NCBI GenBank assembly: GCA_032718475.1
Contig: JAUCBJ010007164.1
Span: forward strand, 1-64,000
Reading direction: 5' to 3'
Length of the DNA stretch: 64,000 nt
Source of the DNA: Nemertoderma westbladi
Lineage: Eukaryota; Animalia; Xenacoelomorpha
Part shown: positions 12,980 to 40,500 of the stretch, piece by piece
How positions within the stretch are numbered: position 1 is the first letter of the stretch
How the letters are laid out: every line of letters begins with the position of its first letter
Made by a program: the position numbers and the translations under genes
The notes under the pieces: generated by a model
What the model was told of the DNA's origin: nothing
The model's database searches: none
The model's input: only the letters and a program-made list of their open reading frames with translations

Positions 12980-13560
12980 GCTCAGATTGTTCAGATAATT
13001 GTAGGCTGGACTGTTGTTGGACTGTTGTTGGGTCTGGAGAGATTGCGGCGTGTGTAGAGTCTGTCCGATAAAGTGCCAGTTAGTAAGTTGGGGCATCTTG
13101 AGTTGTAAGGTCAACCCCCTCCTAAAGAATAAGTCGTACTACCGTGTTAGAACGCATACTAACTAACCATTTTGGAATCTGCATATACTGTAGTTTATTT
13201 AGGCTTGATAGTAGTCTGCCAGCGTTTTAGCCTGTGTGTTTGTTTGTGTGGTCTGTTCAGGTACCGTAATAGTTATTACTCAGATATTTTGTAGGCTGGA
13301 TTGTTGTCTGGCTGTTGTTGGGTCTGGAGAGATTGCGGCGTATGTAGAGTCTGTCCGATAAAGTGCCAGTTAGTAAGTTGGGGCATCTTGAGTTGTAAGG
13401 TCAACCCCCTCCTAAAGAATAAGTCGTACTACCGTGTTAGAACGCATACTAACTAACCATTTCGGAATCTGCACATACTGTAGTTTATTTAGGCTTGGTG
13501 GTAGTCTGCCAGCGTTTGGTTTGTATTTTGTTTGAGTATTCTGTACGGGTAGCGTAATAT
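12980..13560 (+). repeat. Tandem duplication of about 290 bp in the E1 5' leader
   Basis: Two near-identical copies (TTGTAGGCTGGA at about 12999 and 13289). E2 has an equivalent duplication at about 47010-47580. Confidence 0.85.
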
Positions 13561-14866
13561 TTATTATTCAGAGTTTATGCGATTATTCGCAACATTCATG
13601 TCCCCAAGTTTATTCCTACAGTAATTGTGCTTGTTACACATACCGTTATAGTTAAATTAACCCCGGTACTACACGGGCTGCTTGGCGTAGGTAAAGACTG
13701 GTGACTTTGTGCTCCGGTCACTCCAGCAGATGCCGTGGTTCTTTTAACTGTTCAAGTATATTTAACTGCTAGTTATCTGTTTTAATAAGTACTTGTACCT
13801 AATTTAGGGTTTAGTGTACAGTGCTTTCCGAAAGTAATTAGTGTGTAGGCAGTGTATTGTGTTGTAAAGTGGTTAATAGGCACGTTGGATCTGGTAGTCT
13901 GCGGTAATTAACTTCCAGGTAGGAACACTCCGTGATACATAATGTAGTACCTATAGCGATACGGCTATAGGTCGTCAGACGGTGGTATTTTTCCTATCTG
14001 GACAGCGCAATATATCTACTACTACTTATTATTTTCAAATACCGTAGTACCCTGTCCGTTGTAATAACCAGAATTCTAACCCTTTGTTAGGCTGGTTTGT
14101 AGACTTCCTGTAAAATTACCCTAAAATTTCGTACGTAATATTTTTGTTGTGTTTAATTAGAGAATTAATCTCACCCGTATCGTAAGTAATTTGTAGTATT
14201 AAGTAACTTAGGTAAATTAGAATTATTTGTTTTAGTGTCCAACAAGTAGCACTTCACTGAGAGCGCACAGCTTCTGTGTAGTGACTCCCCCCAGAAATAA
14301 TAACATTTATTTCAAATATTGACAAAACCCATTTTAAACGGGTATATATATATTATAAATCAACTCAAACGATTTATAAATAGTAGGCCTGCCATACAAC
14401 AACTAGGTCTCAATATCAGTTGGACTACTGCTTAAATAACGGTAATAAAGTAGGTTAAAGTAACCAAGTAACCCTAAAATTTCAGAAATTCAATTATTCT
14501 AAAATAATTGACATACCGGTATTTACCATAGGCTTATTATATTTATTTCTATAAATTTGGGCTGAAATCATACCGGTATCCTGTAATTAATTCTAGTTCA
14601 TAATTATACTTATATATACTATAAGTGTAAGCTACATACCGGTATTCACGATAGGCCTATTATATATTTATATATATTTGTGCTAAAAATTATATACCGG
14701 TATTTTGTGACAAACCTAGTCTACCATACTTATATATACTATAAGTGTATACCGGTATTCTAATATATTGTAATTAATTACCGGTACGAGGCCAACGGTC
14801 ATACTGAATTACTAGACTTGCTTTAACTGTAACTATAGCAGTAAGCATTCAACTGTATAGCTAAGT

Positions 14867-17800
14867 ATGTCTGACACAAAGCAAAACCTGTCAGACAGTC
14901 TAATCGATACAACCATCTGTGACACAGATAGGAGTGTGGAGCGATTAAGAAAGGGGTTCAGCTCACTTCCTACTGAAAGAAAAGTCATCCCTCCAGTAGT
15001 AGTATCAGACCCTAGGCTAATCCAACACCGTAGGTCTATCATCGGCACTCGGGCCCAGGTCAAACGGAACCAAGAGGCAGCTGTCCAACAGCAGCAACAT
15101 CCTAGTCAAGAAACTCGTTCCCAGCGACCCGATAGCTCCAGTAGTTCGGATACTGTAGAGCTGACCCCCGAACGCAGAGTGAAGATGGCGGCTACAGCCT
15201 ATTCGGATCCCCTTCTCACCCTTCCTGCCGCAGTACTAACTACTATATTGATTGCGGTGGAGGAACACCAAGGCGATTGGGCGAGAAGTAAGCGAGCGAC
15301 CCAAGATAGTTATGCGGGATACGCCAGGGAAGAATTGATGTCTATTGTCGAGTCACAATGGAACTTTCCCGGACTCGGACTCCCGTTAGATTTGTCCGAA
15401 GCTACTTGGGAAGACATACACAGGATGGGAGTGACTAAAGATACGATGGATCCAGCTGTTTGGAAGAGGTCGGCAGCAGGATATGTGCAGGGATTCTTCG
15501 GCTCCTTAGAGCGATTAGAAGAACAACTGTTTCGACAACCCCAAGGACCTCAAGAGCAGGAAGAGCTGCTATATCAAGTACACGAAAGAACCCTACGCAT
15601 TAGACTAATCCTATCAGCCTTTGAGGAAACTTCCAAAAGAAGACAGGACACGTCGCTGCAAGTTGCTGTCAAGACTTGGTTCCAGCGGGTAGGTCTCAAA
15701 GTACAAGAAACGGCCCAGTGGAAATCCCAGCTGGCTGAGAGACCAACCTATGAAGAATCAACCGATGCCACCTTTTCTCAAGTGGAAAGCGAAGTGACCG
15801 CAGAGAGACCGCGAACGAGAGACGCCATAGACATCTATCTGTCAGATTATCAACGTTGGACTCAATCGATGCGGAAAGGTTAGCTGCAAACCAAGCTAAA
15901 TTTGATGAAAAACTCCGCCTCGCTAGAGTCCAGGAAGAACAAGTAAAGAAAAAACGGATAGAGGACCGAAAGGCAGCAGCAGTAGCAGCGGCAATGGCAG
16001 AAGCGGAAGCGGCAAAAGCGGCAGCGGCAGTGAAATCCGCAGCAGCAAAGGCAATGGCAGAAGCGGAAGCGGCAAAAGCAGCAGCAGCAAAGGCAGTGGC
16101 AGAAGCAGAACGGAGAGCGTCTGAAGAGACTACCCAACTGGAGTTGGAAAATCTGCAAGAGACGCAAGACTGCATAAATAAACAGTTAACTGCTAGTCAA
16201 ATGCAGATGATGAGTCGATCTACTCCCAAACGCCAAGGATACACATCATCGGAGGAAGGCGAGACCACCGATCCTGAAGGCGGAGGAAATAGATCTCGTC
16301 TAAGCAGGCGTAGAAAAACATCTCACCGTCACAAATTGCCTGATTTGCCCTCAGCGGTTAGAAGACAACTAGCTAGCACAGACTTAGGTAGTACAGAACC
16401 CACAGACCAAATTATTAAGGTCAAAAGACTCCCTATGATAGTTGATGAGCCTGAAATAATTAGGCCTGTCGTTCCCAAAGCCACTCCTGTGCTAGAGAAC
16501 CCTGTACTTCCAGTGCTTAACTCTAAATTCCCTCTACACAGTATTACACTGCCTGTACCCGGTAGAACAGTCCATGCGAATATCCCTGTCCTGGACACTG
16601 AGAGAGAAATCAAAGATTTGTCTCCCGTCGTCCCGCGTTGGCCCGCTACAATGTTGGCGACTCCCGCTTCGGCGGTTGAGTGGGTAGAGGAGGGACGGCG
16701 GGGGATGAATCTCCTGCTCGGACAGATGCAGGAGACTGTCCACCAACTTAAGGGAACAGTAAGGGAAAGTAGGTTAGAATTGCAAGAAGTGCAGCAAAGC
16801 ATCGCGCTAGAACGCGACAAATTAGTCAATATACAAAAGGGTATACCAATACCCCCTGTAACATTGTGTCAACCTGTTAGGTCTGAAGTATTACATGCGC
16901 AAGGTGTGGAGCCTACACGCATCTATACTGCTAGTGAAGTAGAAACTCCTATAGCAAACCCTATTAAGGGTGATTATAAACCTGTTGTTAATGATATTCC
17001 CTATAGACTTGATAATAATAACACGATGGCCCAAGAAAGCTTTACACGTCAGATGGCTAGAACAGAAGCCCGCCAAGCGGTCAAAGTGGGAGAGATCGTC
17101 AAATTCAATGGAGATGAGATGAAATGGTTACCTTTCAATGAATATTACAAAGATAGCATACAGAACTCTGTACTATCTAACGGAGAGAAGCTTAGATTCC
17201 TCATCAAGTGTTTGGAAGGACCTCCCAAGTTAATGGCGTTAAAGTTTATTGGACACCCAGATGGATTAAGACAAGTTTGGGATACATTAAACACCAGGTA
17301 TGGTAACAAGGATAACATAGCTAAGTATTTGTATGCAAAATTAGTAGCCCCCAGAAACTTCCTTAGTAGCGGGATTATAGAGTTTTCCGATGAGATTCAG
17401 GAGATCTGTAGACAATTGGACTGGTTAGGTAAGTCTCATGAATATCAGAGTTCCATGGTTATTGGAGCAGTAGTCTCTACTTTACCAAAGGGTGGAGTAT
17501 GTACACGCTGGGACAAGAAAGTGTTGTATATGAATGAGCAGCAACGACGAAGCCCTACCATGGCTGATCTCATGTCCTTCTTAGATGGTGAAGTAAAACT
17601 ACAACTCATCAAGCAGTCCAGAGAGAAAACATCGGAAAATAAGGTAAGTGAGAAACCCGTTTCTAGGAGAAGAGTAACACCAGTGTGTTACACTGACGAC
17701 GGCGAAAGCCAAGCTTCTCAAGAAGAAGACAGCGGGAAAGACACTGACCGATTTTACTACGTTAACAAAACCTCAAAGGACGTAAGTAAATACAAGGCTC

Positions 17801-20800
17801 GAACCAAAGATAGGAGAGAACAGGTTGCCAAGACTCCTCCTCAGTCTCCTAACAGAATGCACGGAAGAAAGCCCGAAGAAAGAACGAGAGTGCATCACGT
17901 TACCCAAGGTAAAGTGAGTAACACCAAACCAAACTGTGCGCTGTGCGACGGGCCCCACCGTTTGAGTGCGTGTGCTGAATTTCTAAAGAAATCCCTTGTA
18001 GACAGACGTGCAGTCATGTGGGATAAGCGGTTATGCTATAATTGCCTCAGATCAGGACACCAATGGCGAACCTGTTACTCTGACGTAAAGTGTGCAAAGT
18101 GTGGCGCGAAACATCACATCTTGTTACACAGTGAGTTCGAACGAGACAACCCGAGTCAGGTAAGTGAGCCCGAACTACATGTCCAATTCAGTGATGTAAA
18201 TGACACTGATCAAGAGTCTGAGATGGAAGGATTCTATACTGACGAATTCTCCGACGCCAACGAATCCTGTTACCTAATAAATACCGCAGTATATCGAGCA
18301 CTTACTTACGAAAAGGACACCGACAATGAGTTCCCCCCAACTACCTTTGCCAGACAACCATCTTGGAAAGCTCCAACTTCCAACGTAGGAATCAGAGAAT
18401 TTCCTGTAGTGCAGGTAAGAGTTCACGGTCCCAACAAAAGTTACATAGTGAACGCCCTCCTTGACTCCGGCAGCACAGGAACATTCATCGATCAAGAACT
18501 AGCCGAAGATATCTTTGCTGGACAACCCAAATTCCGGACTAAATTGAATATGTCAGGAATTATGCAGGTTTGGAAATCTACCATAACGGCAGATTACTAT
18601 GTAGGTGCGTTGTCTACCCCTCAGGATAAATTAGGAGCACAAAGTATAAGGTCAGTAAAAATGGTGGCTATAAAGAACTTCGCTACTACCCAAGTAGAAC
18701 CTTATAACTGGGACGAGGATGAGAGCATCCAACAGCTTAAGATACCTCGATTCCAGACAGATTATCCTGGAGTGCAAATACTCATCGGCCAAAACGCGCA
18801 TGAGGCGCTCGAGACATTGGAGAAACGGCCTGCTCAACCGCAGCCACTACAAACCTATGCGGTAAGAACTAGAGTAGGTTGGTACTTTACTGGACCTTCC
18901 CGCAGAACTCTCGAAGAGAGAATGCCACAAGAACGAATATATCAAGTAAACGATTGGGAAGTGGAGAGCAGTGAGGTGGACGAACTAACTGAGGGAACAC
19001 CATACTCCTCAGATAATGACGACATCTATCAACTCTTCGATGAAGAGAACACAATCGACCTACTTACAGAAAACAAAACTTGGAAAAACCAGGTGAACCT
19101 ATGTCAACTGATTCGCCCATCGGGACCCATTGATTACAATGACGAACTAAATGATGAGATAGAGCGCTACAACGCTAGAACTCGGGACGAACTCGCCGTA
19201 CGATTCTTTACTCAAGAATTGGTAGAGCCCAATTCATACGATAAGGCCCTATCGATAGAAGAAGAAAGAGCCAAGCAAATCCAGGAAACAACTACACGTT
19301 TTTTAAAAGATCAAGGTAGATATGAAATCGGCCTACCATTTCGAAAACGAGAACCTAGATTTATAAATAACAGACCCTTGGCAGAGAAAAGAATCACTCA
19401 ATTACATCGACGCCTTACGGCTAATGCTTCAGCTAAAGAAATGTACCAAACTCAATTGAAGAAATTTATTACAAAGGGATACGCGGAGCGTGTACCGGAA
19501 GGAACACCAGTAACTGAGAGAACGTATTACTTAACACATCATTACGTTCCCAAACCCGGTAAACCCCATGAAGTACGAGTCGTATTCGATGGCTCCGCTC
19601 TATATATGGGCCAATCCCTCAATTCCGAGTTGTTACCAGGACCCAACTTACTTCAATCTTTGTTGGGAATACTTTTAAGATTAAGACAATATTCCATTGC
19701 GTTCGCCTCCGATATAGAAGGAATGTTCTTACAAGCCAAGGCGCTGGATAGAGATAGAGACAGCCTAAGATTTCTGTGGTGGCCTGAAGGAGATCTCAAC
19801 CAGAAACCGGTAGAGTACTGGATGACCATCCAGGCTTTTGGGATCATATCAAGCCCTTCCAACGCCTGCTCCGTGGTGCGGACCACTGCGAATGACAACC
19901 GAGACGCCTTCTCCAAAGAGGTGATAGACAACATCAAGCGCGATATATACATGGACGACAATTTAAAGTCCCTTCCATCAGTAGAAGAAGCCATTGATGT
20001 CGCGAAAGGAACGGTAGAGTGTTTGAAAAGAGGTGGATTTCGACTGACGAAATTCACCAGCAACTCCCGTGAGTTTCTGGAAGCGATACCGGTAGAAGAC
20101 CGAGAACGAAAGACCTAGACTTAATAAAGGACGATCTTCCAGAAACCAAGACGCTTGGCTTGAAGTGGGACACAGAAAGAGATATCCTGTTTTTTCAGCT
20201 AAAGCAGCGAGATAATCCAGTTCGGACCAAGCGGATTTGTTTAAGTATCCTGAGCACTTATTTCGACCCATTGGGATTTATTAGCCCAGTTATATTGATT
20301 GCTCGGAGTTTAGTACAACAAATGTGGCTTGAAAACCACTCATGGGACGATCCACTTAAAGGAGAACTGTTAAAGAAGTGGATGAAATGGGAAGATTCTC
20401 TACCTGCCATCGAGAGCTTTGTAATTTCCCGTGCATATTTTGGTCATGTTCTTCCTACGTATTCCTATCAACTCCATGTGTTTGGAGACGCCAGCGACAT
20501 GGGAATAGGTATAGTAGCATATCTGCGAGTCGAAACTCCGGATGGAATCAAAGTCGCCTTGGTTACCTCTAAGGCATTGATTAACAACAAGCTAAAGGTT
20601 CCTCGAGTGGAGTTAAAAGCGGCTTTATACGCTACAGCCATCGGCCGGAACGTAACAGAACAAATCGACTATCCACTGGAGAAAACTGTTTATTGGACCG
20701 ACGCTTTACTCGTGTTGGAGTATATAACCAATGAAGTCTGTCAGTTCAGCGTTTTTGTTACTAACAGGGTAGCTATTATTCTTAGTCGCACAAAGATAGA

Positions 20801-22832
20801 TCAATGGAGACATTGCCCCGGTACGATTAATCCCGCCGATATCGCCTCCAGGGGAGCAACTCCACAGGAACTGATAGATACTCCAGACTGGTTGGGTGGA
20901 CCCGACTTCCTGAGTAAGGAAGAGGATGAATGGCCTCCTCACCTTACTACGGCGGAGATTAGACAAGCCAAGGGAGCGGAGAAAGTCAAACCTAAAACCC
21001 GGGCGAGTAAATCGAAGTTATTTAAACCGACTATCGATCTATCTGTATTACATACTTCCGGAAACGATGCTTCGGATCCACAATCCCTCGCCACAAATAA
21101 GTCTGTTGTGGAAATTAGAGATAGAGATTGGAAATCTGGAACACCAGACGTCTCGCAAGGAATCTCACCCCTGCTGCAGAGAGCAATGCATCACTACAGT
21201 TCCTGGAATCGGCTCTGTAAAGCCGTCACATATTTAAGGCGATGTTTTCATCATCACTACTCCAGGACGAAGACCATTAGTGATACCGCTCCATTGACAT
21301 ATGCGCAAGTTCATGTTATTAAAAATTTACCCAAATATAAGACATCCGACCGGTTTCTAAAGGAGAAAATCAGTTACCAGGAGCATGAAGAAACCAATAA
21401 GCAGATACTGAGACTCCTGCAATGCTATGAGGATTCCGATAAGTATTTCCTGTTGTTGAGAAATCCGCAGATGCGCTTAAGGGATCGCTTCTCTAGCACA
21501 ATGATAGATGGGTTAATACGTGTTGGAGGAAGGCTCACCAATGCGCCATTATCCTTTGACACTAAATTCCCCATACTCATTAGAAATCTTGAAGTACAAA
21601 TCAAGATGATTGTAGATGTTCACAGTAAACTTTATCATGCTGGTAGAGAACGAGTTCTTAGCGAAATTCGAACTCGCTATTATTTTGATAAACCCCGTAG
21701 AGCTCTGAACCAAGTTCTTAGGAACTGCATACCCTGTAGGAAAGCATTCAGTAGGCCTTTAACACAGCGAGAGGCAGAATTACCTAGGGAACGAGTAAGC
21801 TTCTATGAACCACCTTTTACTAATACTGGTGTAGATTTATTTGGCCCTATTGAAGTATATCGTGCTAGGACTATAGTCAAGAGATGGTGTGTCATCTTCG
21901 TATGCATGACTTGTAGAGCCATCCATCTCGATATGGTGAACGATCTATCTACCAACAGCTTCGTATTAAGTTTACGCCGACAGATCGCTCGCTTCGGGAC
22001 TAGTAATACCATGAGATCGGATAAGGGAACGAACTTCATTGGTGCCAACAACGAAATCCAGGCTTACGTGAAGGACTGGAACCAAAGACAGGTGGACGAT
22101 CAGCTAAGGATAACAGCGTCTAGCTGGACCTTCAACGCCGCCGACGCCCCTTGGTGGGGAGGAAGTTGGGAGAGATTAATTAGAAGTGTCAAGACCGCAT
22201 TTCACTTTATAGTGCCATGCCGCGCGTATCTCACCGACGAACTTTTGCGGACGTTAATGGAGGAAATAGCTGCCTATCTCAATGAGAGACCGCTTATGCC
22301 AGTCTTATCGAGTCCCGATTCCCTGGAAGCGCTAACACCCGCGCACTTTCTACTGAAGAAACCTGTAGCCATGCTCCCACGATTGGAGATTACCGACGGA
22401 GACGAATACTGCCGTCGAACTTGGCAACTTATGCAGTTGCTATCTCGTCGTTTCGCTGACCATTTCGAGAAACATTATCTGCCCACGCTACAACTTCGAA
22501 CTAAGTGGTTTGCGCAGCAAGAAAACGTCAGCGCCGGAGATATGGTGCTTATTGTAGATTCAGACCTTCCACGTAAACGGTGGCAGACAGGTCGTATCAT
22601 CGAGACTCACATCTCGGATTATGGTTTAGTACGCTCGGTAGAACTCGTCGTCATGCGGCGTAACTTCAAGAAGCCAGGCATAATCTTTGAGACGCAACAA
22701 CTCAACCGCCCAGTTGGTCGTTTATGTTTACTGGAAAGAGACCGAGAACTCTCCGGAAACTATGGAAGGCAAGACACTCTTCCCACGACCACCTCCCTAA
22801 TTCCTCAAACATCTAGGGACTCCCCAACGTGA
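14867..22832 (+). CDS. BEL/Pao Gag-Pol polyprotein (about 2650 aa), split by two 1-nt frameshifts near 15858 and 20108
   Basis: DUF1759-like gag (KFNGDEMKWLPF); three BEL-type knuckles (CALCDGPHRLSAC, CYNCLRSGHQWRTC, CAKCGAKHH); protease LLDSGS; RT (RVVFDGS, SDIEGMFLQ, YMDD); Pao RNase H (VFGDAS, PRVELKAA, YWTD, NPADIASRG); integrase (H..H..CIPC, GVDLFGP, SDKGTNF, WERLIRSVK). Confidence 0.95.
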
Positions 22833-24449
22833 TACGTCTGGAGTGGGTGCATGACTATATTATTCTATCTATTTTTATTATATTTTATATGAGAACGTTA
22901 TTATGTACTTTATTATAATCGTTTTATTTAATTTTATTTAGTAGAATGTTATTTTAGATTATTTAGTAGGTTAGTGCAATATATTAGTGTTTATTACGTA
23001 ATTACACATAATATATTTAATATGACGGCGAGAAATAATTCTTTCTTTTTCCTTACTGTCCGTATTATATTATAAATACGAGACTACATGTAAGATGACA
23101 TGTCAGTACTTATTAAAGAACAATAAAGCTCCTGCTATATTTAAGTATTATCGGTAGGCAGAGTATTAGGAATGCAAAGTTCAGATCCTCGTGTCTCGGC
23201 TAAACCAAGCTCTGGGTAGACCTTGGAAACGACTTGCCTCTTCACACTGACATTGCTTCGTGCGATATTGCTCTTCTACTTTATATTAAATAATACATAT
23301 AGTAGCGTGATGTCCCTATAACAGTAGCGTAAAACGCAAATAAATCTGTTAAACCTTTTGACCATCTGTAATTTTAGTCGATTAAGATATCGCGGCACCC
23401 ACCGATATACTTGAAAGACAAATTCTAGAATCAGTGGTTAACGTCCCCAGACAAGTTCTGGAATAAATCGGTGCCTATCTTAAATATTAATTTAATATTT
23501 ATTAAAATCTGTAAAATGCAGATCCTTTAAAATTTCTAGTCAATTAAGATATCGCAGCACTTACCGATACTCTTAAAAGACAATTTTATAGAATTAAGGA
23601 TCCTAGGTCCCCAGACATGCTCTGGAATAAAATTGTGCCAATTTTACCATCAAATAATAAAATTCACGGGAATAAAGTTAAATTCATATCTTAAATGAAT
23701 TTCATAAATTGTCATTTTGTGCAATTTATAACATTCCCAAAATTCCATTAATTAATAGATCATGGGAGCGGAGATTCATCCTATTGAGTGTATTAGAGTG
23801 CGAGAATCTCCAACATATAGTCAATAGCCGATAAAATTAATAAAATCATGTATAAAGAGGATATTGACAATTAAAGAATTACTATTAAATAGCATTCCAG
23901 ATCTGTATGCATGAGAATTACCCTAATTCTACCGCTAGCTTTCCATAATGTCACCATAGCAACACCCACGCTAGAATTAGAAGCAAGTTAAAAGAACAAT
24001 AGAAAGCTTGTCCCATTGCATAGCATAGAGAATACATAGCACACTGTTAGTATCCAAGGATACACAGTAATAACGTGACATTCTGGAAGGCACTGACTAA
24101 CGGACAAATGGCCTGTATGTGTACAATTGGTGACAGTTGTGTTGGAATTTGTGCGTTATAGGTGAATGTTACTGCTAAAGTATGTTTACAGTAGCTAGTC
24201 GCAATTGTAAAAGTAGCCCAACTCTCCTATAGAAAGAACCTAAAGTGGATCCAAGCCTTTGGGACGGACAGTGGAGTGACTTGTGCCGGTTATCGTTGTC
24301 GTGCTGTTGCTACATGTTGGCGTAAACACCGCGACGACGGTACATCGGCGCTGAGAATCCCACTGTCCGGGGGCAACGAGAGGTAGGCAGCGACGCCCGC
24401 TAGCCTAAACATAAACTCATTTCGATATTAATAAACTCAGATAGCAGAT
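22833..24449 (+). other. 1.6-kb non-coding pol-ORF3 intergenic region with conserved predicted RNA helices
   Basis: No ORF of 60 aa or more. Strongly conserved with E2 52454-54110, including an identical block of about 120 nt. Several stems show compensatory or G-U-compatible changes. Confidence 0.7.
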
Positions 24450-27400
24450 ATGACGGAGTTGATAGAAGATGATCTTGGTATCAGGGAGCGATATACTCTA
24501 CCTTTACAAGCATTTGTGGATAGCTTGATACGCGGTGAAGCCGATCCAACCATTACGGAGGGCGATGGTCGTTATATCGAACCGCCGATGTCCCAAGAGC
24601 AACTTACGCGTGAATTGGACTATCGAAAATTCACCACTCGCTATACGCATCGTAATGGTACGTATATGGACTTCTTAACTACCGGCCATCCTATCGATTT
24701 ACATGATACGGACGATGTAGACACCGAAAGGGAAATGGTTCTATTTAAATATCATACCCAGCGGAGTCGTAACGATAAACCGAGAATAGAACACGAAAAT
24801 TCTATTCGTAACAGACTGGAAAGAGAAAACGTTGAAGAACCGGATAAAAGCATCGACTTCAACGACTACCTGGAATTTTTGAGAGAAACCTATCTCAACA
24901 TCGCCAGTCAGCAGAACCTAGAGACTCGATATCCTCAAGGTATACATCATGACCCTATTGTAGAACTCAAACGGCTCTATTTCACTATGATGTATCTTAC
25001 CGCCGATCGTCCACTACCTGTTATCCCGGATAGTTTTGAACAAATGGAAGAATATTGTAAAACTGGAGAACGATCACCCGCGTTTCCTCTACAGGACGTA
25101 CGTCTTTGGTATTATTGTGACGAATGCCCTAGACCCAACCAACAAACTGAAAGACATAAACATCCGCGGAGACGTTGCGCTAAACACAGTTTTACGCGTT
25201 ATACTTACGGGAGTTTCGAGCGAAACATGTTCGACGTATCACCTACGATCGCTCGTCTTAAACGATCACTGAATAAACCCATGATCAGAGTTCCGGAATA
25301 CTCGGTCAGGCCTCCTCATTCCCTAGTGAGACCTCAAACTCTTGATCCTAACAGTATCACTGATCCTCCCGAACTCTATTCACTGTTCAAAGATTTAGTG
25401 CTACCCGAACAATTAATCGGTGGTGCTCCGGTAGTGGGTTCGTTAGACATTCGCCCATCCTACTTAGCCGGATTGGGACGCGGGCATCTAATATCGCCAT
25501 TTGATCCTTACAATCGTCCAGGATTAAACCCGATGCAACCCGCCACGGAAGTCGAGGAGAGCGTTATAAGAAACGCTTTAGACGCTATTCGACAGAAGAT
25601 CGGAAAGGGAACACAAGATTGTTTAGAGAAACGTAAATTACAACAACAAGTCCAATCGGTGAAGGAGTTAGCCTTGCCACAGTTCGATAGAGAATCCAAA
25701 ACCTCGAGGAGGACATCGAGCTTGGACGCACGTATTCTCTACAAGAGTTTCTAGATGAACGCTTACCGAGACAAGCGGAAGAAAATCTACTCGAGGAGAA
25801 ACACATGAAAATGGACGAGAGAGAAGAAGCCGCTTTAGCCCAACCCAAAGCTCAAATCCTTATGACAGATCTCTACTCTAAAACCGTCCGTCATCCCTCG
25901 ATGGTTCCACATTTCGGAGACAAACTCTTCGCGACGATACAACCCCAACCGGTTGATATCAGTACAGGATCGCAAAATCTTATCGCTGACGCCCCTATGT
26001 TACAGCGTCCGCCGATCGAGGCGGCTCGTGTTGACGGTATACTCGTTGAACCTCCGGACAATCGATCGGATCTTGTCCGTCGTATGGTACACGATGTCAA
26101 CATACGCGCTAGACCTTTACAGAACTCGTTTTATGGGATTAAAGACCACCCTTATTACGTTAATCTGACTCAGTATTATATGGTAAAACCAGAAGACCCG
26201 ACGCATAATTTAAAGTTTCTACCACTAATAAATCCTCTAGACGTTGTCGAACTCGAACAATTGCAGAAACATCTGGATCAGTTAGTAAAGGTAAACTCAT
26301 TCAGAAAACCATATAACATTTCTCGAATCGAGAAGGATATAAAACCTCCTTATAATCTCGATGGATTTATTAAAACTCGATTAGTCCATTGGAATCTAGA
26401 TGTATTATTTGAAGAAGAGAAAATACAAAGATATGGAAATGTGGAGACGTATACCACTCGGCACATGAAGTATAGTGATCTCCCTGACGCTAACCAATGC
26501 GCCACCTTGTGGCATCCAGTAGGGATGACCCTAGAGAACGCCACCAAAGAGTGGAATGAAACTCTTAATGTCATTGAGATGTATGGAGTTGTCACCTACG
26601 ATAATGAAGGTAGCGTTCCGGTCGGGGAACTAGGAACTACGCGCATGATCCACATACGCGGATTAGCTGGTTCTACCCACGTGTTTACTCGAGCGTGTTC
26701 CGACGTGATTGATTATTCCTTTGAAACTCTCACCGAAACGCAAAAGAATCTCCGACATGGACAATTCGAACTCGCGCAGCGTTACGTCATTGACACCGAA
26801 CGCAAACCGGCCATGGGTATCGATGGATCGATGTTACCCCAGCCCGTACTCGAGATGTTGTTCAACGAAAGAATCCTTAAAATCGGCTCAGCTGTTTATG
26901 GAGATCTCCAAAACGCAAAACGACTTTCGGAATATGGAAAATATCCCATATCCTTTCGTGGATACGCAGCTGATTGCTCCCTGGGCAGAAGGTCGAGGTT
27001 TCTTTCGCACCATGTATGCTAATACGTCCAGCAGCATTACAAAGGTGCAACGAACTTCCATCGGACATCTTGCCTTTCAGGAATACGGATGGAATTTCAA
27101 AGTCGGAAATCCCATCAACTATCAACAAGTATACGGAGACCATTATTCTCGATTATACTTTGATGGACCATTGACCGCACCTGGCGCCATGTATAGCTTC
27201 ATGAGTGTTCCACTCCGTCCCTCCTTAGCTATCTACACGATCTTTGAAAACACCGCACTTTCCGGTTGGCTAGCCGATGTGTGCAGTCGTACTATACGCG
27301 CCCATCCATTAATACTTGGGACCAAACTCGCTAAGCTAGATGAACATAATAAATTCCTCCGCTTCGAATGTTTCCGGCGATTTTTAACCCCGTTCCGCAA

Positions 27401-28709
27401 CGTGGATAGCCAATTTAAAGACCGCGCTTTGACCAAGCTCAGCCTAAGAAACTCAGCTGCAGAGAAGTTAGATAGCGCTGGATTTGCCATTTTCAAAGAG
27501 ATTTGTATATCGAACTTGCACTCCTCTGTTATACAAAGACCTCGAATCCCCACAGGTTATTCTGTCGTGGAAATTCAGACAATAGGTCCACTTGAAGAGA
27601 CAGACACGCCCACCTCAGTTATGCACTGGGAAGACGAACCAATATGCCTAGAATCTGAGGAGATTCAGCCTATCGCGCCCCGGAACAGCGACAACGATTA
27701 CATCCTAGAATGGTATCAAGGTCCACAGTGTCTCACTGCGTACGATTATCGACATGCCAACTATGTTTCTAGGCAACGTTGTCGGTTATGCGCATCGAGA
27801 GACCATGTTACGCCCATGGACACAAACGTCCGCTGTTCCTATTTCCAAGAACAACCGACGATGGAAATTTATTGCGCATATTGCAGACTCAATAACTTGC
27901 ATATTTTTGCGGTTTGCCCTCAATTTATGACTCAATGTCAACATTGTCAACTAAAGGGACACGCCAGTTTCGATTGCCCTTTTAATCACGATTTGGAAAG
28001 CGTAGATGAAATGATCACACTACGTTACATCAGAGCTTGGGAAGCGAACGCTGATTTACATTGTGATTCGCGCCATCGCTATTATCTTGGACGCGCTTAC
28101 GAAGGAGTTTATGCGTTCCATCCTTATCTATTCGCTTCTGTCGAACAGAAATCACGCATATCGAGTTACGAACTACTGAAGCGCGTCGGAGAATGTATTT
28201 CAACCAAGTTCGTACGCAAATTTCTCAGGAGTGTTAATCCTAGCGACCTTCATTCATATAACCTAATCAATTTTATCCGTCAGGATCCGGACTATGGAGA
28301 CCTATTTGTTAACTCACACCCCGAGTTACAGGAAGTATATCGACGGCCTTACGAATACCGAGCCCGCGAACGCGAGTTGGAAAGAACCATTAAACCCAGG
28401 AAGTTTCTGACTGCCTATGGTCCACCCACGGCTCTCGTTCAGACCACTTGTAAAGGACCCGTAAGAGCGGCTGTCCTAAAACGCGCTCTCAAGGCCGTTA
28501 GACCCCTCTCCCCCGACGTTGATGTCAATCAACCCGGCACTTCGACTGGCGGATACACCGACCATAATCCTACACCCTCTGATGCAATCATATTGCACCC
28601 TTCACCCAGGAGTTATAGCCCTCCTTGTAAAGTGGCTCGCCCCAAAGAGAAAAAGACTCTGGCCAGCTTTAAAAAACTGCGTAAACGCCGTCCACGCAAG
28701 AAAGACTAA
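24450..28709 (+). CDS. E1 ORF3 (about 1419 aa if two 1-nt indels near 25693 and 26940 are corrected): DEDDy/WRN-like 3'-5' exonuclease domain, Cys/His zinc knuckles and a basic C-terminus
   Basis: ExoI-like VVTYDNEG; ExoII-like LPQPVLEMLFNERILKIGSAVYGDL; then FVDTQ..SIGHLA and an ExoIII-like PLRPSLAIYTIFE. Knuckles: CRLCASRDH, CAYCRLNNLHIFAVC, CQHCQLKGHASFDC. Tail KKLRKRRPRKK. The E2 homolog has the A that is missing at 25693, supporting a single ORF. Confidence 0.75.
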
Positions 28710-28787: not shown

Positions 28788-29987
28788 TGTAAAAGCTTTT
28801 GCGGATATAATCAGTCCCCTTGCCCGCAAAGTACCGTTGTAGGTGTGTTAACGGACATAGAAGTCATTCTTCTATATGTGTGCTTTGGCGGACATGGCAA
28901 GGCACAAAACCCGCAATGCGTCAAATCCTCTAGCACAGTGTAGCCTTGATGATTCAGATTACGACATCTAACAGCTGGTTGCTGGCATGGAAACGGCCGT
29001 TGGACACATGGTTCTTTGTTTAGCTTAACAGCCAATCAGGGCGATTTTTACTGTCGATGTGGAGATATTCTACAGATCGTGCTAGGCGTGTTCAGTCTTA
29101 CTGTTTTCTGTGTTATAGTTTTGTTGTTTCTATCTAGGCCAAGAACACCGGCTCTAGAGTCAGTTCGTTTTCAGACTTTAGAAGAAACATTAGTAGGCTT
29201 AGATTATAGAACGTATAACTGTTATCAACCCAATTATCAGCGCAGTAGCGCAGCGGTACCATCTGATATTGTTATAATCTTAACCTACCGTCTTAATGCT
29301 TTTACTGTTGTTATTATTTGTATCAGTTGGTTGAATATTATTACTTGGAGAACATCGATAAATAACCCAAATTTCCCAATTTTCTTGATACACTACAGGT
29401 TAGAGAGACAGGTTACATATAGCGATTGCGACTTATATTATCGTGGTTTGTAGTGAATTTAATGCTATTTGATAAGCACTACATGAGTCAATTGCTGTTC
29501 TCTTGATGTATGATAAAATTCATTGACGGTCGGCAGATTAGTGTTCAGTATTGTGCGTTACCGGTAGTGTGCATGATTGTGGCTGATAACTAAGCATTTC
29601 CTAAAGAATGCGCCTCATACGTGAATCATAAGCCTTACCGTCTTACCGTTGTGTTTAGTATAAGTCATATCTCTGTTTACCTAGATAGAGCGCCACGTCC
29701 TAAAGGAACTGTTAATATTTCCCGAAAGTGAATAATATTTGTCAGAAATTATTTATTAACGATCAATCGAATAATACAGTAAGCTTACACTGCAATAAAA
29801 TCTAAGCCCTCCGAATCCAGTCTCCCGGGTATATCCAGCGGGTGAATGGACGCGCACTAGGCTGGCTTCGGCTAATGTTGTGTTTATTGGTATTAAATAC
29901 TTGTCATATGCTAAAGTCTATTTATAAACCAAAAGACATATAAATTTTGGCAGGTTAAACTGCTAAAGGTCTTCAAAAGCGCGTACA
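28788..29987 (+). repeat. E1 3' LTR (1200 bp)
   Basis: Near-identical copy of 11426-12625, followed by TSD GGTCC. Confidence 0.97.
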
Positions 29988-30138
29988 GGTCCTACATTAC
30001 AAATTAGCACCACCCTACAGCAACAACAACAACAAAAAAGAAAGAAAAACTTAGTATAAAGAAAAACCCGTGGAAAAAATAGTTAATTTTTCCCCACCCC
30101 ATTCCATCAACCCATTTTTTCCCGCCTTATCTTAAATG

Positions 30139-30680
30139 ATCCATGTAAGTATCTGTAAGCTCCATGTAAGTATCTGTAAGCTCCATGTAGGTATCTGTAA
30201 GCTCCATGTAAGTATCTGTAAGCTCCATGTAAGTATCTGTAAGCTCCATGTAAGTATCTGTAAGCTCCATGTAAGTATCTGAAAGCTCCATGTAAGTATC
30301 TGTAAGCTCCATGTAAGTATCTGTAAGCTCCATGTAAGTATATGTAAGCTCCATGTAAGTATATTTAAGCTCCATGTAAGTATCTGTAAGCTCCATCTAA
30401 GTATCTGTAAGCTCCATGTAAGTATCTGTAAGCTCCATGTAAGTATCTGTAAGCTTCATGTAAGTATCTGTAAGCTCCATGTAAGTATCTGTAAGCTCCA
30501 TGTATGTATCTGTAAGCTCCATGTAAGTATCTGTAAGCTCCATGTAAGTATCTGTAAGCTCCATGTAAGTATCTGCAAGCTCCATGTAAGTATCTGTAAG
30601 CTCCATGTAAGTATCTGTAAGCTCCATGTAAGTATCTATAAGCTCCATGTAAGTATCTGTAAGCTCCATAAGTATCTGCC
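30139..30680. repeat. 21-bp minisatellite (CCATGTAAGTATCTGTAAGCT), about 25 copies
   Basis: Direct tandem units, which also give the artefactual MELTDTY ORFs. Confidence 0.95.
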
Positions 30681-31725
30681 TAACCCTAAGATGAGGTCAC
30701 GACTCTTGCTTGATAACAAACGACGAAATTTATTTATTGAAGGACAGATGACGAATCTGCTATCAAGGAAACGACTACGTATCCCCCTGTACGCGTTACA
30801 AACGAGAAGAAAATGGAATTCGTCTTCTACAGTACTAGACCACTATCACACATCGGACCGTCGTACCACCGTCCAGTTTCTATCATTAATTCATAGGAGG
30901 AACAGCGAAACCTAGCTAACAGCCGTCCCAATGAAATATGAGTCCATCCAGATAATACTCGCTTGAGAAATATAGCTGTCCCTTCGAAGAATCACGGATA
31001 GATCCCCACCAGGTCTGAATAAATTGATCCTGTAACCTTAATTTAATTTCTAGCATATGTAATTGCATTCCCGTTGTCAATACAATTACTCTTGTCATTC
31101 CATAACCATGAGAACCCCAATGAATTAAGCAGACCCCTGACTGAAGCCGCCCAGCCCAACAACTCACCCGTACCTTCCACCAGTATGTTGTATAACTGTT
31201 TTGGTAACCTAGCCTCAGACATTTTCAAGAGCTTAAACCAGTACCTAATGATCCGTAATTTCCAATCAATCACCAAAGGAAAGTATCCAGTTTCACCATA
31301 TGCCGCAATGTTTGGCCAGCGAGAAATCAATAAACGAGAACTTTAGAAAATATTGAATTAAGACAAAATAGGCCCTTTCTGCTTCTCAGCTACTCACTCA
31401 CTCACTCACTCACTCACTCACTCACTCACTCACTCACTCACTCACTCACTCACTCACTCACTCACACTCACTCACTCACTCACTCACTCACTCACTCACT
31501 CACTCACTCACTCAGCTAGAGTTCTCTGTGCCAAGTTGAATATGCCAGTGAATGAAAAAACAATTCCTAAGTATTCATAATCATTCCGCACATTCATAAC
31601 CTACCCGTTAGGGGGCGTTCATATAACATATACACCTACATACAACCAACGTTCATTTGCTGCCAGACGTCCGAAACACTAGAATATCAGACTTACTCAT
31701 ATTAACTTCCAGATTCCTATAATCG
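30680..31725 (-). mobile_element. Decayed non-LTR retrotransposon (CR1/L2-group) ORF2 3' fragment
   Basis: Minus-strand pieces LEVNMSKSDILVF, DYEYLGIVFS, AAYGETGYFPL..IIRYWFKLL, IKLRLQDQFIQTWW and a C-terminal EDEFHF segment. Frameshifted and interrupted by (ACTC)n. Confidence 0.8.
31392..31514. repeat. (ACTC)n microsatellite, about 30 units
   Basis: Visible tetranucleotide repeat, flanked by CTCAGCTA on both sides. Confidence 0.95.
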
Positions 31726-34859: not shown

Positions 34860-37572
34860 CGTCACCTTCAAGGCAGAACCCCCTAAGTCGATTTTTTTCG
34901 ATTTTCATGTTTTTGACTTTTTGGGTAATTCGATATCGGCTTTTTCGTCTGGCAGAACCCCGAAGCTTTTCTACCAGCCATTTTTGAGTTATAAGCCAAA
35001 GACAGTTCCCCGTAACTTATGCCCACTTCGAGGCAGAACCCCCCAAGTCTATAATTGGCTTGCAAAACACCGTAAATTCAAGTATATGAAATTCAGTCCA
35101 CCTGGCAAAACCCCTTAAATTAGAAATAACATCATGTAAAACCCCGTAAATCAGAAACAATAGCCTGGCAAAACCCCGTAATTTATCATTTATACTGGTT
35201 TGTATTGCGGCCAGGACACAAATATTAATGAGGGACACAAACATTATTGACCCCCCCCCACCCACACCCCGGCTGGTATACCCCCATATTTTCAATTTAC
35301 CTCCTACCACCACCATTCATTTTACCCCCCCCCCCCCCCCCCTCCCCGATTCCTATCTCCCCCTCATGTTCATCATTTTTTTACTCCTACTCCTTCCCTT
35401 TTTACTAACAACATCGTTTATTGTTTTGGTTAGAAAAAACATCTCTGTAACCTGATCCTTTCCTTCAATTGGCAATAACATAGTTTATTGGTTTGGTCAG
35501 ATTAATATGTTATTATTTATTGTTGTTATTTTATTGCTTGACAGTAATGAGAATTGTAATACTGTAATATATTGTATGTATATGGGTGGTAACATGAATC
35601 ATACTAAGTGCGAAGGGCGATAGTGCCCATGATTAATGTTTGTGCCCTTGATTGATATCTGTCCCTCGTTTATTGTTTGTGTCCCTCATTAATGTTTGTG
35701 TATTTCATTAATGTTTGTGTCCCTCATTAATGTTTGTGTCCCTCATTAATGTTTGTGACCCTCATTAATGTTTGTGTCCCTCATTAATGTTTGTGCCCCT
35801 CATTAATGTTTGTGTCCCTCATTAATGTTTGTGTCCCTCATTAATGTTTGTGTACCTCATTAATGTTTGTGTCCCTCATTAATGTTTGTGTACCTCATTA
35901 ATGTTTGCGTCCCTCATTAATGTTTGTGTCCCTCATTAATGTTTGTATCCCTCATTAATGTTTGTGGCCTTGATTGATATCTGTCCCTCGTTTATTGTTT
36001 GTGTCCCTCATTAATGTTTGTGTCCCTCATTAATGTTTGTGTACCTCATTAAATTTTGCGTCCCTCATTAATGTTTGTGTCCCTCATTAATGTTTGTATC
36101 CCTCATTAATGTTTGTGCCCTTGATTGATATCTGTCCCTCGTTTATTGTTTGTGTCCCTCATTAATGTTTGTGTCGCTCATTAATGTTTGTGTCCCTCAT
36201 TAATATTTGTGTACCTCATTAATGTTAGTGTCCCTCAATTAATGTTTGTGTCCCTCATTAATGTTGTATCCCTCATTAATGTTTGTGTCCCTCATTAATA
36301 TTTGTGTCCCTCATTAATGTTTGTGTCCCTCATTAATGTTTGTGTCCTACATCAATGTTTATGTCCCACATTAATGTTTGTCACCCTGATTAATGTTTGT
36401 CCCACATTAATGTTTGTGGCGCTGATAAATATCTATCCCTCATTTAATGTTTGTGGCGCTGATAAATATCTATCCCTCATTTTGTTTTTGTCCAAGTTGC
36501 TATAAGTTACTCTAGGTTGCCGGACGTTTTGGACAATTTGGTCAGCAACTAGCAACTTAATTTGAGCAACATTAACTTTTAGTCTCCGTTATATGAGGCA
36601 TCTTTAACAGCAACAAAGTTCGCGTTTACATAGAGCAACTTGATCGGCAACCTGAAATGCTTACTAAGTTGCTGATAGAGTTGCTCAGAATGTTGCCACG
36701 TACTGTAGAAAAAACAGGTCTTTAATTATTCGTCATGACGTAATGTAAGTGAACTTTACTTTAACGTAGCTGTAACCCTGTAGCTAGACTTTGTTCTTAC
36801 TGTAGAGTACCACCCATGGCTATATTTTGTACTTAGAGTTCCGCTTTCTTGAATCTAAATTTTCTTCTTATAGTTCTGCATTTGGCTACATTTTGTTCAA
36901 TTTGTATTGATACATGATTCTAACTACAGTCCCGTACTTATTTTAGAAGCAATTAATACCAAAATATCAAAAACTTATGGAGCCCTTTAGAATTTTGAAT
37001 TCAACAATTTCCAACATGTGCGTGTATGTTAGCTATATTGTATGTGATTATTTGTTATTATTGCGTTTACAGGTAATACTAACACCTGATCATGTGCTAG
37101 TTAACATGTTAGATAGCACGTATTAGCTAATAACAAATGCGCACATGTATTACGTGCGCACTACGCACTAAATAATTAAGGACGTACGATACGCCTTGGC
37201 TATTATTTGATATATTTTGCGTGTTTTTTGTAAAAATTCGGACTTATGGTGTTTTACCAAATTGAGGATACCTTGTTTTCTAGGCAATACCCCGCAACTA
37301 TCGTATAGTTACGGGATAATACCAGAAAATGGTGTTCCCCCTTGTTTTGGCAAAACACCATAAGTCCGAATTTTTACATAAAAACCGCAATATATTTCAA
37401 AGGTTATTCTAAATCAAATTGAAAGTTTAGTTATATGAATTCTATATATATTTAGTTATCAAAAAACACAATAACAAGTAAACTGAGGCATCTCTTTAAA
37501 AAATAAACAGTTTTTATCGATTATCTCAGAACTACAAAAATCGACTTAGGGGGTTCTGCCTTGAAGGTGACG
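34860..37572. mobile_element. 2.7-kb non-autonomous TIR element nested in the left arm of the foldback
   Basis: TIRs of about 38 bp (CGTCACCTTCAAGGCAGAACCCCCTAAGTCGATTTTT and its reverse complement at 37536-37572). Subterminal GGCA(G/A)AACCCC repeats. It interrupts a satellite unit at CCCATATAG|GGTG. The TSD is ambiguous. Confidence 0.85.
35630..36480. repeat. 19-bp minisatellite (TCATTAATGTTTGTGTCCC), about 40-45 copies
   Basis: Direct tandem units. Two inverted units also occur at about 35213-35250. Confidence 0.93.
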
Positions 37573-40500
37573 AAGGGTGTTTGTGTCCCAAATTGCGTGT
37601 GACTTTCTCAAAATGATTTTACATAGTTTATAAATATAATGGAATAGTTAAAAGCAAATAGAATTCACTATCATAGCTTTAATTTAAATTTGTCCCAAAT
37701 AGGATGTTTTTGTCCCATATAGGGTGTTTGTGTCCCGTATAGAGTGTGAATTGCTTATAATAATTTCAAATATTTTCTAAATGTAATGGAATACTCAAAA
37801 GAATATAGAATTCACTACCATAGCTTCAATTTCAATTTGTCCCGAATAGGTTGTTCATGTCCCATATAGGGTGTTTGTGTCCCATATAGGGTGTTTGTGT
37901 CCCAAATTGCGTGTGACTTTCGCAAATGACTTTACATAGTTTATAAATATAATGGAATACTCAAAAGAAAATAGAATTCACTATCATAGCTTTAATTTAA
38001 ATTTGTCCCAAATAGGTTGTTTTTGTCCCATATAGGGTGTTTGTGTGCCAAATAGCGTGTGACTTTCTCAAAATGATTTTACATAGTTTATAAATATAAT
38101 GGAATACTTAAAAGAAAATATAATTCACTATCATTTTTTCCTTTAATTTAAATTTGTCCCAAATAAGTTGTTTGTGTCCTGTATAGGATGTTTCTGTCCT
38201 GAATAGGGGAATACAGCTTGCCAACACATTGTTGCTGAATAGGGTGTACATTTCTTATAATGATTTTAAATAGTTTCTAAATGTAATGGAATACTCAAAA
38301 GAATATAGAATTCACTATCAGAGCGTTAATTTAAATTTGTTCCAAATATGTTGTTTGTGTCCCAAATTAGGTGTTTGTGTCCCATATAGGGTGTTTTTGT
38401 CCCATATAGCGTGTGACTGTCTCAAAATGATTTTAAATAGTTTCTAAATCTCATGGAATCATCAAAAGAATATAGAATTCACTACCATAGCTTTAATTTC
38501 AATTTGTCCCAAATAGGTTGTTTTTGTCCCATATAGGAGGGTGTTTGTGTCCCGTATAAGGTGTGTTTTGCTTATAATGATTTCCAATAGTTTCTAAATG
38601 TAGGGGAATACTCAAAAGAATAGCGAATTCACTACCATAGCTTTAATTTCAATTTGTCCCAAATAGGTTGTTTTTGTCCCATATAGGAGGGTGTTTGTGT
38701 CCCGTATAAGGTGTGTTTTGCTTATAATGATTTCCAATAGTTTCTAAATGTAGGGGAATACTCAAAAGAATAGCGAATTCACTACCATAGCTTTAATTTC
38801 AATTTGTCCCAAATAGGTTGTTTTTGGCCCATATAGGGTGTTTATGTCCCGTATAAGGTGTTTGTATCCCAAATAGCGTGTGACTTTCTCAAAATGATTT
38901 TAAATAGTTTCTAAATCTCATGGAATCCTCAAAAGAATATAGAATTCACTACCATAGATTTAATTTGAATTTGTCCCAAATAGGTTGTTTTTGTCCCATA
39001 TAGGGTGTTTGTGTCCCGTATAGGGTGTGTATTGCTTATAATAATTTCAAGTAGTTTCTAAATGTAATGGAATAATAAAAAGAATATAGAATTCACTATC
39101 ATAGCTTTAATTTCAATTTGTCCCAAATAGGTTGTTTTTGTCCCATATAGGGTGTTTGTGTCCCGTATAGGGTGTGAATTGCTTATAATGATTTCAAATA
39201 TTTTCTAAATGTAATGGAATACTCAAAAGAATATAGAATTCACTATCATAGCTTTAATTTAAATTTGTCCCAAATAGGTTGTTTATGTCCCATATAGGGT
39301 GTTTGTCTCCCATATAGGGTGTTTGTGTCCCAAATTGCGTGTGACTTTCTCAAAATGATTTTACATAGTTTATAAATATAATGGAATACTCAAAAGAAAA
39401 TAGAATTCACTATCATAGTTTTAATTTCAATTTGTCCCAAATAGGTTGTTTTTGTCCCATATAGGGTGTTTGTGTGCCAAATAGCGTGTGACTTTCTCAA
39501 AATGATTTTACATAGTTTATAAATATAATGGAATACTTAAAAGAAAATATAATTCACTATCATTTTTTCTTTAATTTAAATTTGCCCCAAATAGGTTGTT
39601 TGTGTCCTGTATAGGGTGTTTCTGTCCTGAATAGGGGAATACAGCTTGCCAAACACATTGTTGCTGAATAGGGTGTACATTTCTTATAATGATTTTAAAT
39701 ATTTTCTAAATGTAATGGAATACTCAAAAGAAAATAGAATTCACCATCAAAGCTTTAATTTCAATTTGTCCCAAATAGGTTGTTTTTGTCCCATATAGGG
39801 TGTTTGTGTGCCAAATAGCGTGTGACTTTCTCAAAATGATTTTACATAGTTTATAAATATAATGGAATACTTAAAAGAAAATATAATTCACTATCATTTT
39901 TTCTTTAATTTAAATTTGCCCCAAATAGGTTGTTTGTGTCCTGTATAGGGTGTTTCTGTCCTGAATAGGGGAATACAGCTTGCCAAACACATTGTTGCTG
40001 AATAGGGTGTACATTTCTTATAATGATTTTAAATAGTTTCTAAATGTAATGGAATACTCAAAAGAAAATATAATTCACTATCATAGCTTTAATTTAAATT
40101 TGTCACAAATAGGTTGTTTATGTCCCATATAGGGTGTTTGTGTCCCAAATGGCGTGTGACTTTCTCAAAATGATTTTACATAGTTTATAAAGAAAAGATA
40201 TTTTTTTTATTATTCCATTATATTTATAAACTATGTAAAATCATTTTGAGAAAGTCATACGCTATTTGGGACACAAACACCCTATATGGGACACAAACAC
40301 CCTATATGGGACATAAACAACCTATTTGGGACAAATTTAAATTAAAGCAATGATAGTGAATTCTATATTCTTTTGAGTATTCCATTACATTTCGAAACTA
40401 TTTGAAATCATTATAGGCACTTCACACCCTATACCGGACACAAATACCCTATATGGGACACAAACAACCTATTTGGGACAAATTTAAATTAAAGCTATGA

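Follow-up and report, generated by a model that had tools for sequence, protein, structure and literature searches.

We analysed a stretch of 64,000 nucleotides from the xenacoelomorph Nemertoderma westbladi (assembly GCA_032718475.1, contig JAUCBJ010007164.1, positions 1 to 64,000 of the forward strand; hereafter the window) and focused on the third large open reading frame (ORF3) of a retrotransposon, located at 24450-28709. The window is eukaryotic DNA rich in repeats. The retrotransposon, here referred to as E1, measures 18,562 bp and is delimited by direct long terminal repeats (LTRs) and by a target-site duplication. Its 5' LTR (11426-12625, + strand, 1,200 bp, of the form TG..CA) and its 3' LTR (28788-29987, + strand, 1,200 bp) align with 4 mismatches in 1,200 positions, and the five letters GGTCC are found at 11421-11425 and again, identical, at 29988-29992. 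Two long frames on the + strand precede ORF3. The first, at 15754-20118, encodes gag, a protease and possibly reverse transcriptase; it matches Pfam DUF1759 (E 6.7e-13) and, weakly, Asp_protease_2, and contains two CCHC knuckles of its own. The second, at 20073-22832, is a pol frame with a Pao-type tether/RNase H region and an integrase, and it matches Peptidase_A17 (1.5e-36), which Pfam entitles 'Pao retrotransposon peptidase', as well as DUF5641 (6.6e-19) and Integrase_H2C2 (2.1e-07). The combination of DUF1759, Peptidase_A17, Integrase_H2C2 and DUF5641 is what we take to be the signature of BEL/Pao elements, while RVT_1 gave no Pfam row at E<=0.1 in the E1 frames. With LTR ends, target duplication and Pao-type gag-pol domains all present, E1 is a young BEL/Pao LTR retrotransposon.

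ORF3 lies on the + strand between pol and the 3' LTR, which is the env position assigned to it in a preliminary description of this DNA. It follows pol after a spacer of about 1.6 kb and stops 78 nt ahead of the 3' LTR. It is open in three + frames (24435-25754, 25691-27022 and 26709-28709), which sum to about 1,419 codons when counted from the first ATG at 24450, the same length as was first estimated. The first piece (24450-25692, frame of 24435) runs from this ATG to break 1. The second (25693-26915, frame of 25691) holds, besides unrecognised sequence, the N-terminal half of the exonuclease-like domain. The third (26919-28709, frame of 26709) continues to the stop codon. Both breaks are real: break 1 falls at about 25692, where other copies change length, and break 2 is a frame change within a tandem repeat of 7 nt (26909-26922). 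At each break the contigs of other copies are offset from the window by a length that is not a multiple of three, in agreement with the two indels suspected earlier.

Several motifs can be located on the translated pieces. The exonuclease-like domain, read through with an X at break 2, spans 26558-27320 on the + strand. All strings quoted in the preliminary description are present in ORF3: TYDNEG, a candidate ExoI motif of the form D-x-E (26594-26611); LPQPVLEMLFNERILKIGSAVYGDL (26834-26908); FVDTQ (26955-26969); and PLRPSLAIYTIFE, a weak candidate for an ExoIII variant of the form Y-x3-E (27210-27248). Downstream of the domain, a pattern search of the third-piece translation returned three Cys/His knuckles (C-x2-C-x4-6-H-x4-10-C) within 27780-27977, at 27780-27836, 27873-27917 and 27936-27977. 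Only the last of them resembles the Pfam family zf-CCHC_3, with an E-value of 0.0022 that fails the family cut-off. The protein ends in a basic tail resembling a nuclear localization signal (NLS), with 12 lysine or arginine residues among its last 22 (28641-28706); knuckles and tail had both been described before. For the N-terminal part, about 730 residues rather than the 700 or so mentioned at first, no Pfam family was matched. ORF3 shows no internal paralogy with gag or pol (BLASTP, E<=0.01).

The location downstream of pol, and nothing else, would favour an envelope-like membrane glycoprotein. Across all three pieces the peak 19-residue Kyte-Doolittle mean is 1.21. ORF3 is therefore without a membrane helix, as had been noted, and is not an envelope gene; judged by hydropathy over the three pieces, it lacks the signal peptide and membrane anchor that define a retroviral-type envelope gene. 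Moreover, no Pfam envelope family was matched, and a basic NLS-like tail and zinc knuckles are found instead. The envelope reading is contradicted by the sequence on the counts of hydropathy, tail and knuckles; we rejected it and consider it scarcely credible.

We then turned to other copies of the element. Six public sequencing runs, belonging to four studies and carrying two organism labels, contain the stretch or part of it, and four of them (X1, X3, X4 and X5) were aligned to ORF3. Over 24450-28709 these four gave 22,564, 6,918, 88 and 354 contig pieces, respectively, at 85-99% identity, where depth in the run tables is not equal to copy number. The pieces cover 30 of 30 bins of ORF3 in each of the four runs, including the one under the second organism label. 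Thousands of distinct and diverged contig pieces thus imply that many copies of ORF3 exist. The form of break 2 found in the window accounts for a large share of contig depth in two of the four runs (X1 and X3).

The variation among these copies follows the reading frame. The variable sites considered here are the best-supported ones, selected by support and not by codon position, and all counts cover these listed sites only. For the whole of ORF3, the best 40 of 979 variable sites fall on the third codon position in 24 cases, on the first in 11 and on the second in 5; 25 of the 40 are synonymous. For the domain we compared 26450-27428 (979 nt) at a likeness threshold of 80 or more. Among the best 40 of its 177 variable sites, 34 are synonymous and 6 non-synonymous, and 32 are third positions, while the neutral expectation is 22% synonymous sites for all changes or 33% for transitions only (chi-square p 2e-9; binomial p 1.4e-11 on the listed sites). 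A single length difference is listed among copies over these 979 nt, namely that at break 2. In addition, the codon phase of the variation switches at this very break: of the 23 listed sites that precede 26916, 20 fall on the third base of codons read in the frame of 25691, and of the 17 that follow it, 12 do so in the frame of 26709. The switch therefore provides an independent confirmation of the ORF3 frames. These results indicate that the domain is under strong purifying selection, and ORF3 is a conserved gene of a high-copy BEL/Pao family, kept across many copies.

The same data bear on whether ORF3 might be a host gene that was captured once and has since decayed, or a neutrally evolving pseudogene of no use to the element, two alternatives named in the preliminary description. 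The two frame breaks in the E1 copy would fit such decay, as would the loss of most of ORF3 from E2, a related element in the same window. On the other hand, the whole frame is covered by thousands of diverged pieces in four runs and under two organism labels, synonymous and third positions prevail in the domain, and the phase of variation switches exactly at break 2. We therefore regard this reading, which copy coverage and synonymous excess contradict, as very improbable.

What the conserved domain resembles was examined with profiles of known exonucleases. The E. coli RNase D sequence was taken from the annotated K-12 record, along with 29 PF01612 domains from 61 genomes of its phylum. The comparison profiles comprised 25 sequences of RNase D only, 29 mixed PF01612 sequences, 20 Pol I exonuclease domains and 20 small-exonuclease domains. 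The query, P0006, was the domain read through with an X at break 2, and shuffled controls preserved its composition. In hmmsearch, the RNase D-only profile scored 14.1 bits against the query (independent E-value 2.2e-6 for one target), a score reached by 0 of 3000 shuffles, the best of which obtained 6.6 bits. The mixed profile scored 8.9 bits, equalled by 1 of 2000 shuffles, and the block around ExoII alone was equalled by 1 of 3000. The RNase D alignment joins profile positions 64-109 to residues 131-178 of the query, from the helix with the ExoII Asp to the 'DTQ' strand (26837-26999, + strand), and its sole insertion coincides with the break-2 repeat. Apart from this repeat, the ExoII Asp and DTQ are spaced as in E. 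coli RNase D.

Other methods pointed to the same segment. An hhalign comparison with the 29-sequence alignment picked out this segment too (34% identity over 50 columns; P 8.4e-4, probability 23.9%), and in BLASTP against E. coli RNase D the DTQ segment ranked first (E 0.029). A feature search in the ESM Atlas with residues 255-408 of the second piece, which include ExoII but not DTQ, gave 30 named hits, 28 of which are clusters carrying PF01612; the highest score was 0.91. By these comparisons, the core of about 50 residues from ExoII to DTQ is RNase D-like at a significant level, having the ExoII Asp and the 'DTQ' strand at the spacing of the family. The region as a whole would probably descend from an RNase D-type exonuclease domain.

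It could be argued, however, that the likeness to an exonuclease is due to chance or convergence in one short segment, and that ORF3 has a different fold and is specific to its lineage, as a structural protein or one that binds nucleic acids, for example a second nucleocapsid-like chaperone. Nucleocapsid proteins typically have CCHC knuckles along with a basic tail, only about 50 of some 250 residues align, and the hhalign probability is low. The searches for relatives were also empty. With the middle part of ORF3 as query (about 10 residues of which were out of frame), phmmer against 1.84 billion representative proteins found nothing at E<=0.001. A set of 5.8 billion clusters, searched by word index once with the second piece and once with the read-through region 255-620, gave 0 relatives, and two metagenome scans with the second and third pieces found 0 relatives among 110 and 20 pattern matches. 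Against such a coincidence stand the RNase D score that none of the 3000 shuffles reached, the core spacing identical to that of RNase D, and the predominance of PF01612 in a feature search that was unbiased and covered all Atlas clusters. We consider chance or convergence unlikely.

A complete exonuclease domain is a different matter, and a considerable number of results weigh against it. First, general searches did not recognise one. Pfam PF01612 (DNA_pol_A_exo1) gave no row for the separate pieces, nor for the read-throughs with an X at the break even at E<=10, and phmmer against all PDB chains matched no exonuclease. Second, the outer motifs are not supported by scores. The ExoI block was equalled by 1097 of 3000 and 429 of 3000 shuffles. 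A position-specific scoring matrix (PSSM) of the ExoI core placed VIDTE (residues 113-117 of the query) first, and 752 of 5000 shuffles equalled this score, so that TYDNEG was picked by neither profile nor PSSM. The ExoIII block was equalled by 243 of 3000 shuffles, and the corresponding block of RNase D only gave no match. An 18-column ExoIII PSSM does put PLRPSLAIYTIFE at its top position, yet 314 of 5000 shuffles reach an equal score. The Y-x3-D of ExoIII is absent; the candidates are Y-x3-E in PLRPSLAIYTIFE or Y-x3-S in PLTAPGAMYSFMS (27168-27206), so that E or S, and not D, would occupy the fourth acidic position. Third, taking TYDNEG as ExoI would put ExoII about 102 residues further on and ExoIII about 107 residues beyond ExoII, where E. 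coli RNase D has 57 and 66. With each gap some 40 residues longer, a complete domain requires an insertion of about that length on either side of the core.

Further comparisons add to the same side. The Pol I exonuclease profile was equalled by 551 of 3000 shuffles and the small-exonuclease profile gave no match. The C-terminal half of the domain had no usable hit in the ESM Atlas, and hmmalign aligned the core alone. Even for the core, the Atlas hits share 150-168 features, which by the calibration of the tool means a distant relative or chance, and the profile, hhalign and Atlas tests depend on one local signal that was first spotted by eye, and hence are not fully independent. AlphaFold2 was run on the single sequence because protein searches had found no relatives for an alignment, and the mean predicted local distance difference test values of its two runs were 30.3 and 31.3 with no alignment as input, too low for a fold to be read from the models. 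The proposal of a DEDDy-like exonuclease in the preliminary description thus stands for the ExoII-to-DTQ core, which is RNase D-like by profile, hhalign and ESM Atlas, whereas no significance attaches to TYDNEG as ExoI or to PLRPSLAIYTIFE as ExoIII, and the Pfam and PDB sequence searches are empty.

The two ExoIII candidates deserve a separate remark. PLTAPGAMYSFMS is a look-alike of PLRPSLAIYTIFE with the same P-L-x6-Y spacing, 14 residues upstream. Within 27168-27248, these adjacent strings of 13-14 residues have the common pattern P-L-x6-Y-x3-(S/E), and an internal duplication of the candidate ExoIII motif is possible.

The weakness of the outer motifs raises the alternative that the domain derives from RNase D but no longer cuts, and serves as an RNA-binding or protein-recruiting module alongside the knuckles, comparable to EXD1 and Maelstrom in the PIWI-interacting RNA (piRNA) pathway. 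This would account for a core that matches RNase D while ExoI and ExoIII are unrecognisable, for an E or S as fourth acidic residue, and for strong selection on the domain nonetheless. Inactive DEDD derivatives (Maelstrom and EXD1), and Cys-His motifs in the ORF3s of Vesta elements, are on record in the available portions of a study of bdelloid rotifers (Rodriguez, Kenefick and Arkhipova 2017, PMC5408684). By contrast, ORF3 does have the ExoII Asp as well as TYDNEG as a D-x-E candidate, and Y-x3-E is compatible with metal binding; in the same portions, rotifer ORFs with a DEED tetrad were judged possibly active by the authors (PMC5408684). An inactive module is in our view rather doubtful, though it deserves to be taken seriously, and it is possible, at a little short of an even chance, that the region is still an active exonuclease.

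A related element allows us to ask whether ORF3 is needed in cis. E2, a deletion derivative of about 11 kb, was delimited by tblastn and by blastn against E1 at 45653-56660 (+ strand). Its LTRs (45653-46725 and 55588-56660) differ by 1 mismatch, and no matching target duplication was seen at its ends (TTCTTC on one side and GCGCAC on the other). E2 is 72-89% identical to E1, and internal deletions have removed parts of gag, pol and ORF3. It retains both ends of ORF3 without the part equivalent to 25810-28548 of E1, which includes the exonuclease-like domain and the knuckles. Three observations therefore speak against a domain that each element must encode for itself: E2, although without the domain, has LTRs that differ at a single place; ORF3 of E1 is broken, yet its LTRs differ at just 4 of 1,200 places; and deletion joints across the domain are also present in the sequencing runs. 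Elements with a broken ORF3 or without one have transposed recently, as would be expected if the product worked in trans or aided the element without being essential. We consider it likely that the ORF3 product acts in trans.

Comparison of the two elements also drew our attention to the spacer between pol and ORF3. The segment at 23090-23492 of E1, which corresponds to 52725-53128 of E2, contains no long open frame, yet it is the best-conserved part, with 94-96% identity against 72-84% for coding sequence. Its conservation may reflect a cis-acting function, for example that of an internal promoter, a splice acceptor or an RNA signal for the expression of ORF3.

Taken together, we propose that ORF3 is a conserved accessory gene, other than an envelope gene, and that its product includes a 3'-5' exonuclease domain of the RNase D type (DEDDy-like), very divergent in sequence, which would act in trans for the element by binding single-stranded nucleic acid and trimming the 3' end. 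We put the probability of this reading at about 0.5. In such a mechanism the whole region would fold as a DnaQ-like domain, with two insertions of about 40 residues flanking the core; TYDNEG would serve as ExoI, and Y-x3-E would take the place of ExoIII as in the DEED variant of rotifers. The knuckles and the basic tail would bring the protein to single-stranded RNA or complementary DNA (cDNA), perhaps in the nucleus, where the exonuclease-like domain would trim or hold 3' ends. Candidate substrates would be the RNA or cDNA of the element itself, the replication primer, or small RNAs of the host.

The roles in primer maturation, proofreading or silencing suppression that have been suggested for ORF3 are speculation. 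The most specific version is a trans factor, composed of an RNase D-derived exonuclease, nucleocapsid-like knuckles and a nuclear-targeting tail, that would trim or destroy the 3' ends of small RNAs or primer RNAs, either as a counter-measure against piRNAs and small interfering RNAs or as a primer-making enzyme. We hold this version to be improbable; if true, an anti-silencing or primer-making role could help to explain the very high copy number of the family.

The region directly after the 5' LTR of E1 was inspected as well. A primer site complementary to a tRNA 3' end would begin with TGG. The sequence at 12626-12662 has no TGG start and contains a perfect 9-bp inverted repeat (12640-12648 and 12654-12662), which is partly conserved in E2. 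In view of the absent TGG and the 9-bp hairpin, priming of E1 may be unusual, which leaves a role in primer processing conceivable, though speculative.

Other features of the window are as follows. In E1, the gag-protease(-reverse transcriptase) frame and the RNase H-integrase frame share 46 nt at 20073-20118 in different frames, where a programmed frameshift or a third break is possible. An open frame of 340 codons without a Pfam match lies upstream of gag and overlaps it (14861-15883), and most of 14901-16493 is missing in E2. The long 5' leader of E1 (12626-14860) contains a tandem duplication of about 230-290 bp at 12999-13517, which is found in E2 at 47016-47561. Satellite arrays occur at 29993-30795, 6090-7500, 35589-36400 and 37554-42664, with units of 21, 27 and 19 bp and with units of 147/148 bp over about 5 kb; the 21-bp units begin immediately 3' of the right target duplication of E1. 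No tRNA genes were found in the window.

The nearest enzyme of known type is E. coli RNase D (rnd, PF01612). The helix with ExoII and the 'DTQ' strand of ORF3 align with it at equal spacing and with 34% identity over 50 columns. Unlike this enzyme, ORF3 has no recognisable ExoI or ExoIII and no HRDC domains, its gaps between motifs are about 40 residues longer, and it does not reach the Pfam gathering score. Among animal proteins, Mut-7/Nibbler/EXD1 and Maelstrom are metazoan DEDD proteins of small-RNA pathways. Likened by description, they share with ORF3 a DEDD-derived domain in an animal protein tied to transposon RNA biology; however, they are host genes, whereas ORF3 is the cargo of a transposon. 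Maelstrom has a Cys-His zinc motif, and some of the DEDD proteins in small-RNA pathways are inactive binders, according to the available part of the rotifer study (PMC5408684).

The closest precedents are those of the bdelloid rotifers, to which the preliminary description had rightly pointed. RNase D-like DEDDy ORF3s are found in the Juno and Vesta LTR elements and in the Athena/Terminon retroelements, and in these ORFs the DEDD tetrad is changed to DEED, Cys-His motifs occur in some, catalysis is unproven and no departure from neutrality within the genome is reported, as far as the available portions of that paper go (PMC5408684). The idea that such ORFs process 3' ends has been restated, again in the part of the text available (Arkhipova and Yushenova 2019, PMC6431247). 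The printed record of exonuclease-type third genes in LTR retrotransposons so far consists of the Juno and Vesta elements and the Terminons. A full-text literature search found no paper on ORF3 of a BEL Pao retrotransposon, a search on RNase D exonucleases in retrotransposon ORF3s led back to the rotifer study alone, and among the listed papers joining BEL-Pao and exonuclease none appears, from titles and the beginnings of abstracts, to describe such a gene. If our reading is true, an independent class of retroelements, BEL/Pao, also keeps such a gene under strong selection, and the trimming or binding of 3' ends would be a recurrent need of retroelements and not an oddity of rotifers. Moreover, as no relative was detected among 1.84 billion representatives, ORF3 represents an orphan protein that is large and under constraint, encoded by a very abundant repeat, and it offers a concrete protein for testing effects on replication priming or small-RNA silencing.

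In both E1 and the rotifer Juno, Vesta and Athena elements, as described in the available text, a third ORF downstream of pol encodes an RNase D-like protein that is not an envelope and whose function is unproven. The tetrad is altered to DEED in the rotifers, and the candidate here is Y-x3-E; Cys-His motifs are found in some of the rotifer ORFs, and three knuckles here. The differences are clear as well. The rotifer ORF3s have 'strong homology' to DEDDy exonucleases, while that of E1 is missed by Pfam, and the rotifer clades named in the same text are Juno, Vesta, TelKA and Mag (PMC5408684), whereas the host element here is BEL/Pao. Compared with the rotifer proteins by description only, ORF3 of E1 is much larger, with about 1,419 residues, some 730 of them unrecognised at the N terminus, three knuckles and a basic tail. 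Its domain is strongly constrained, in contrast to the rotifer ORFs without departure from neutrality. In short, ORF3 of E1 shares the logic of the rotifer cases and differs from them by its BEL/Pao class, its size with knuckles and tail, a divergence that exceeds detection by Pfam, and the strong selection acting on it.

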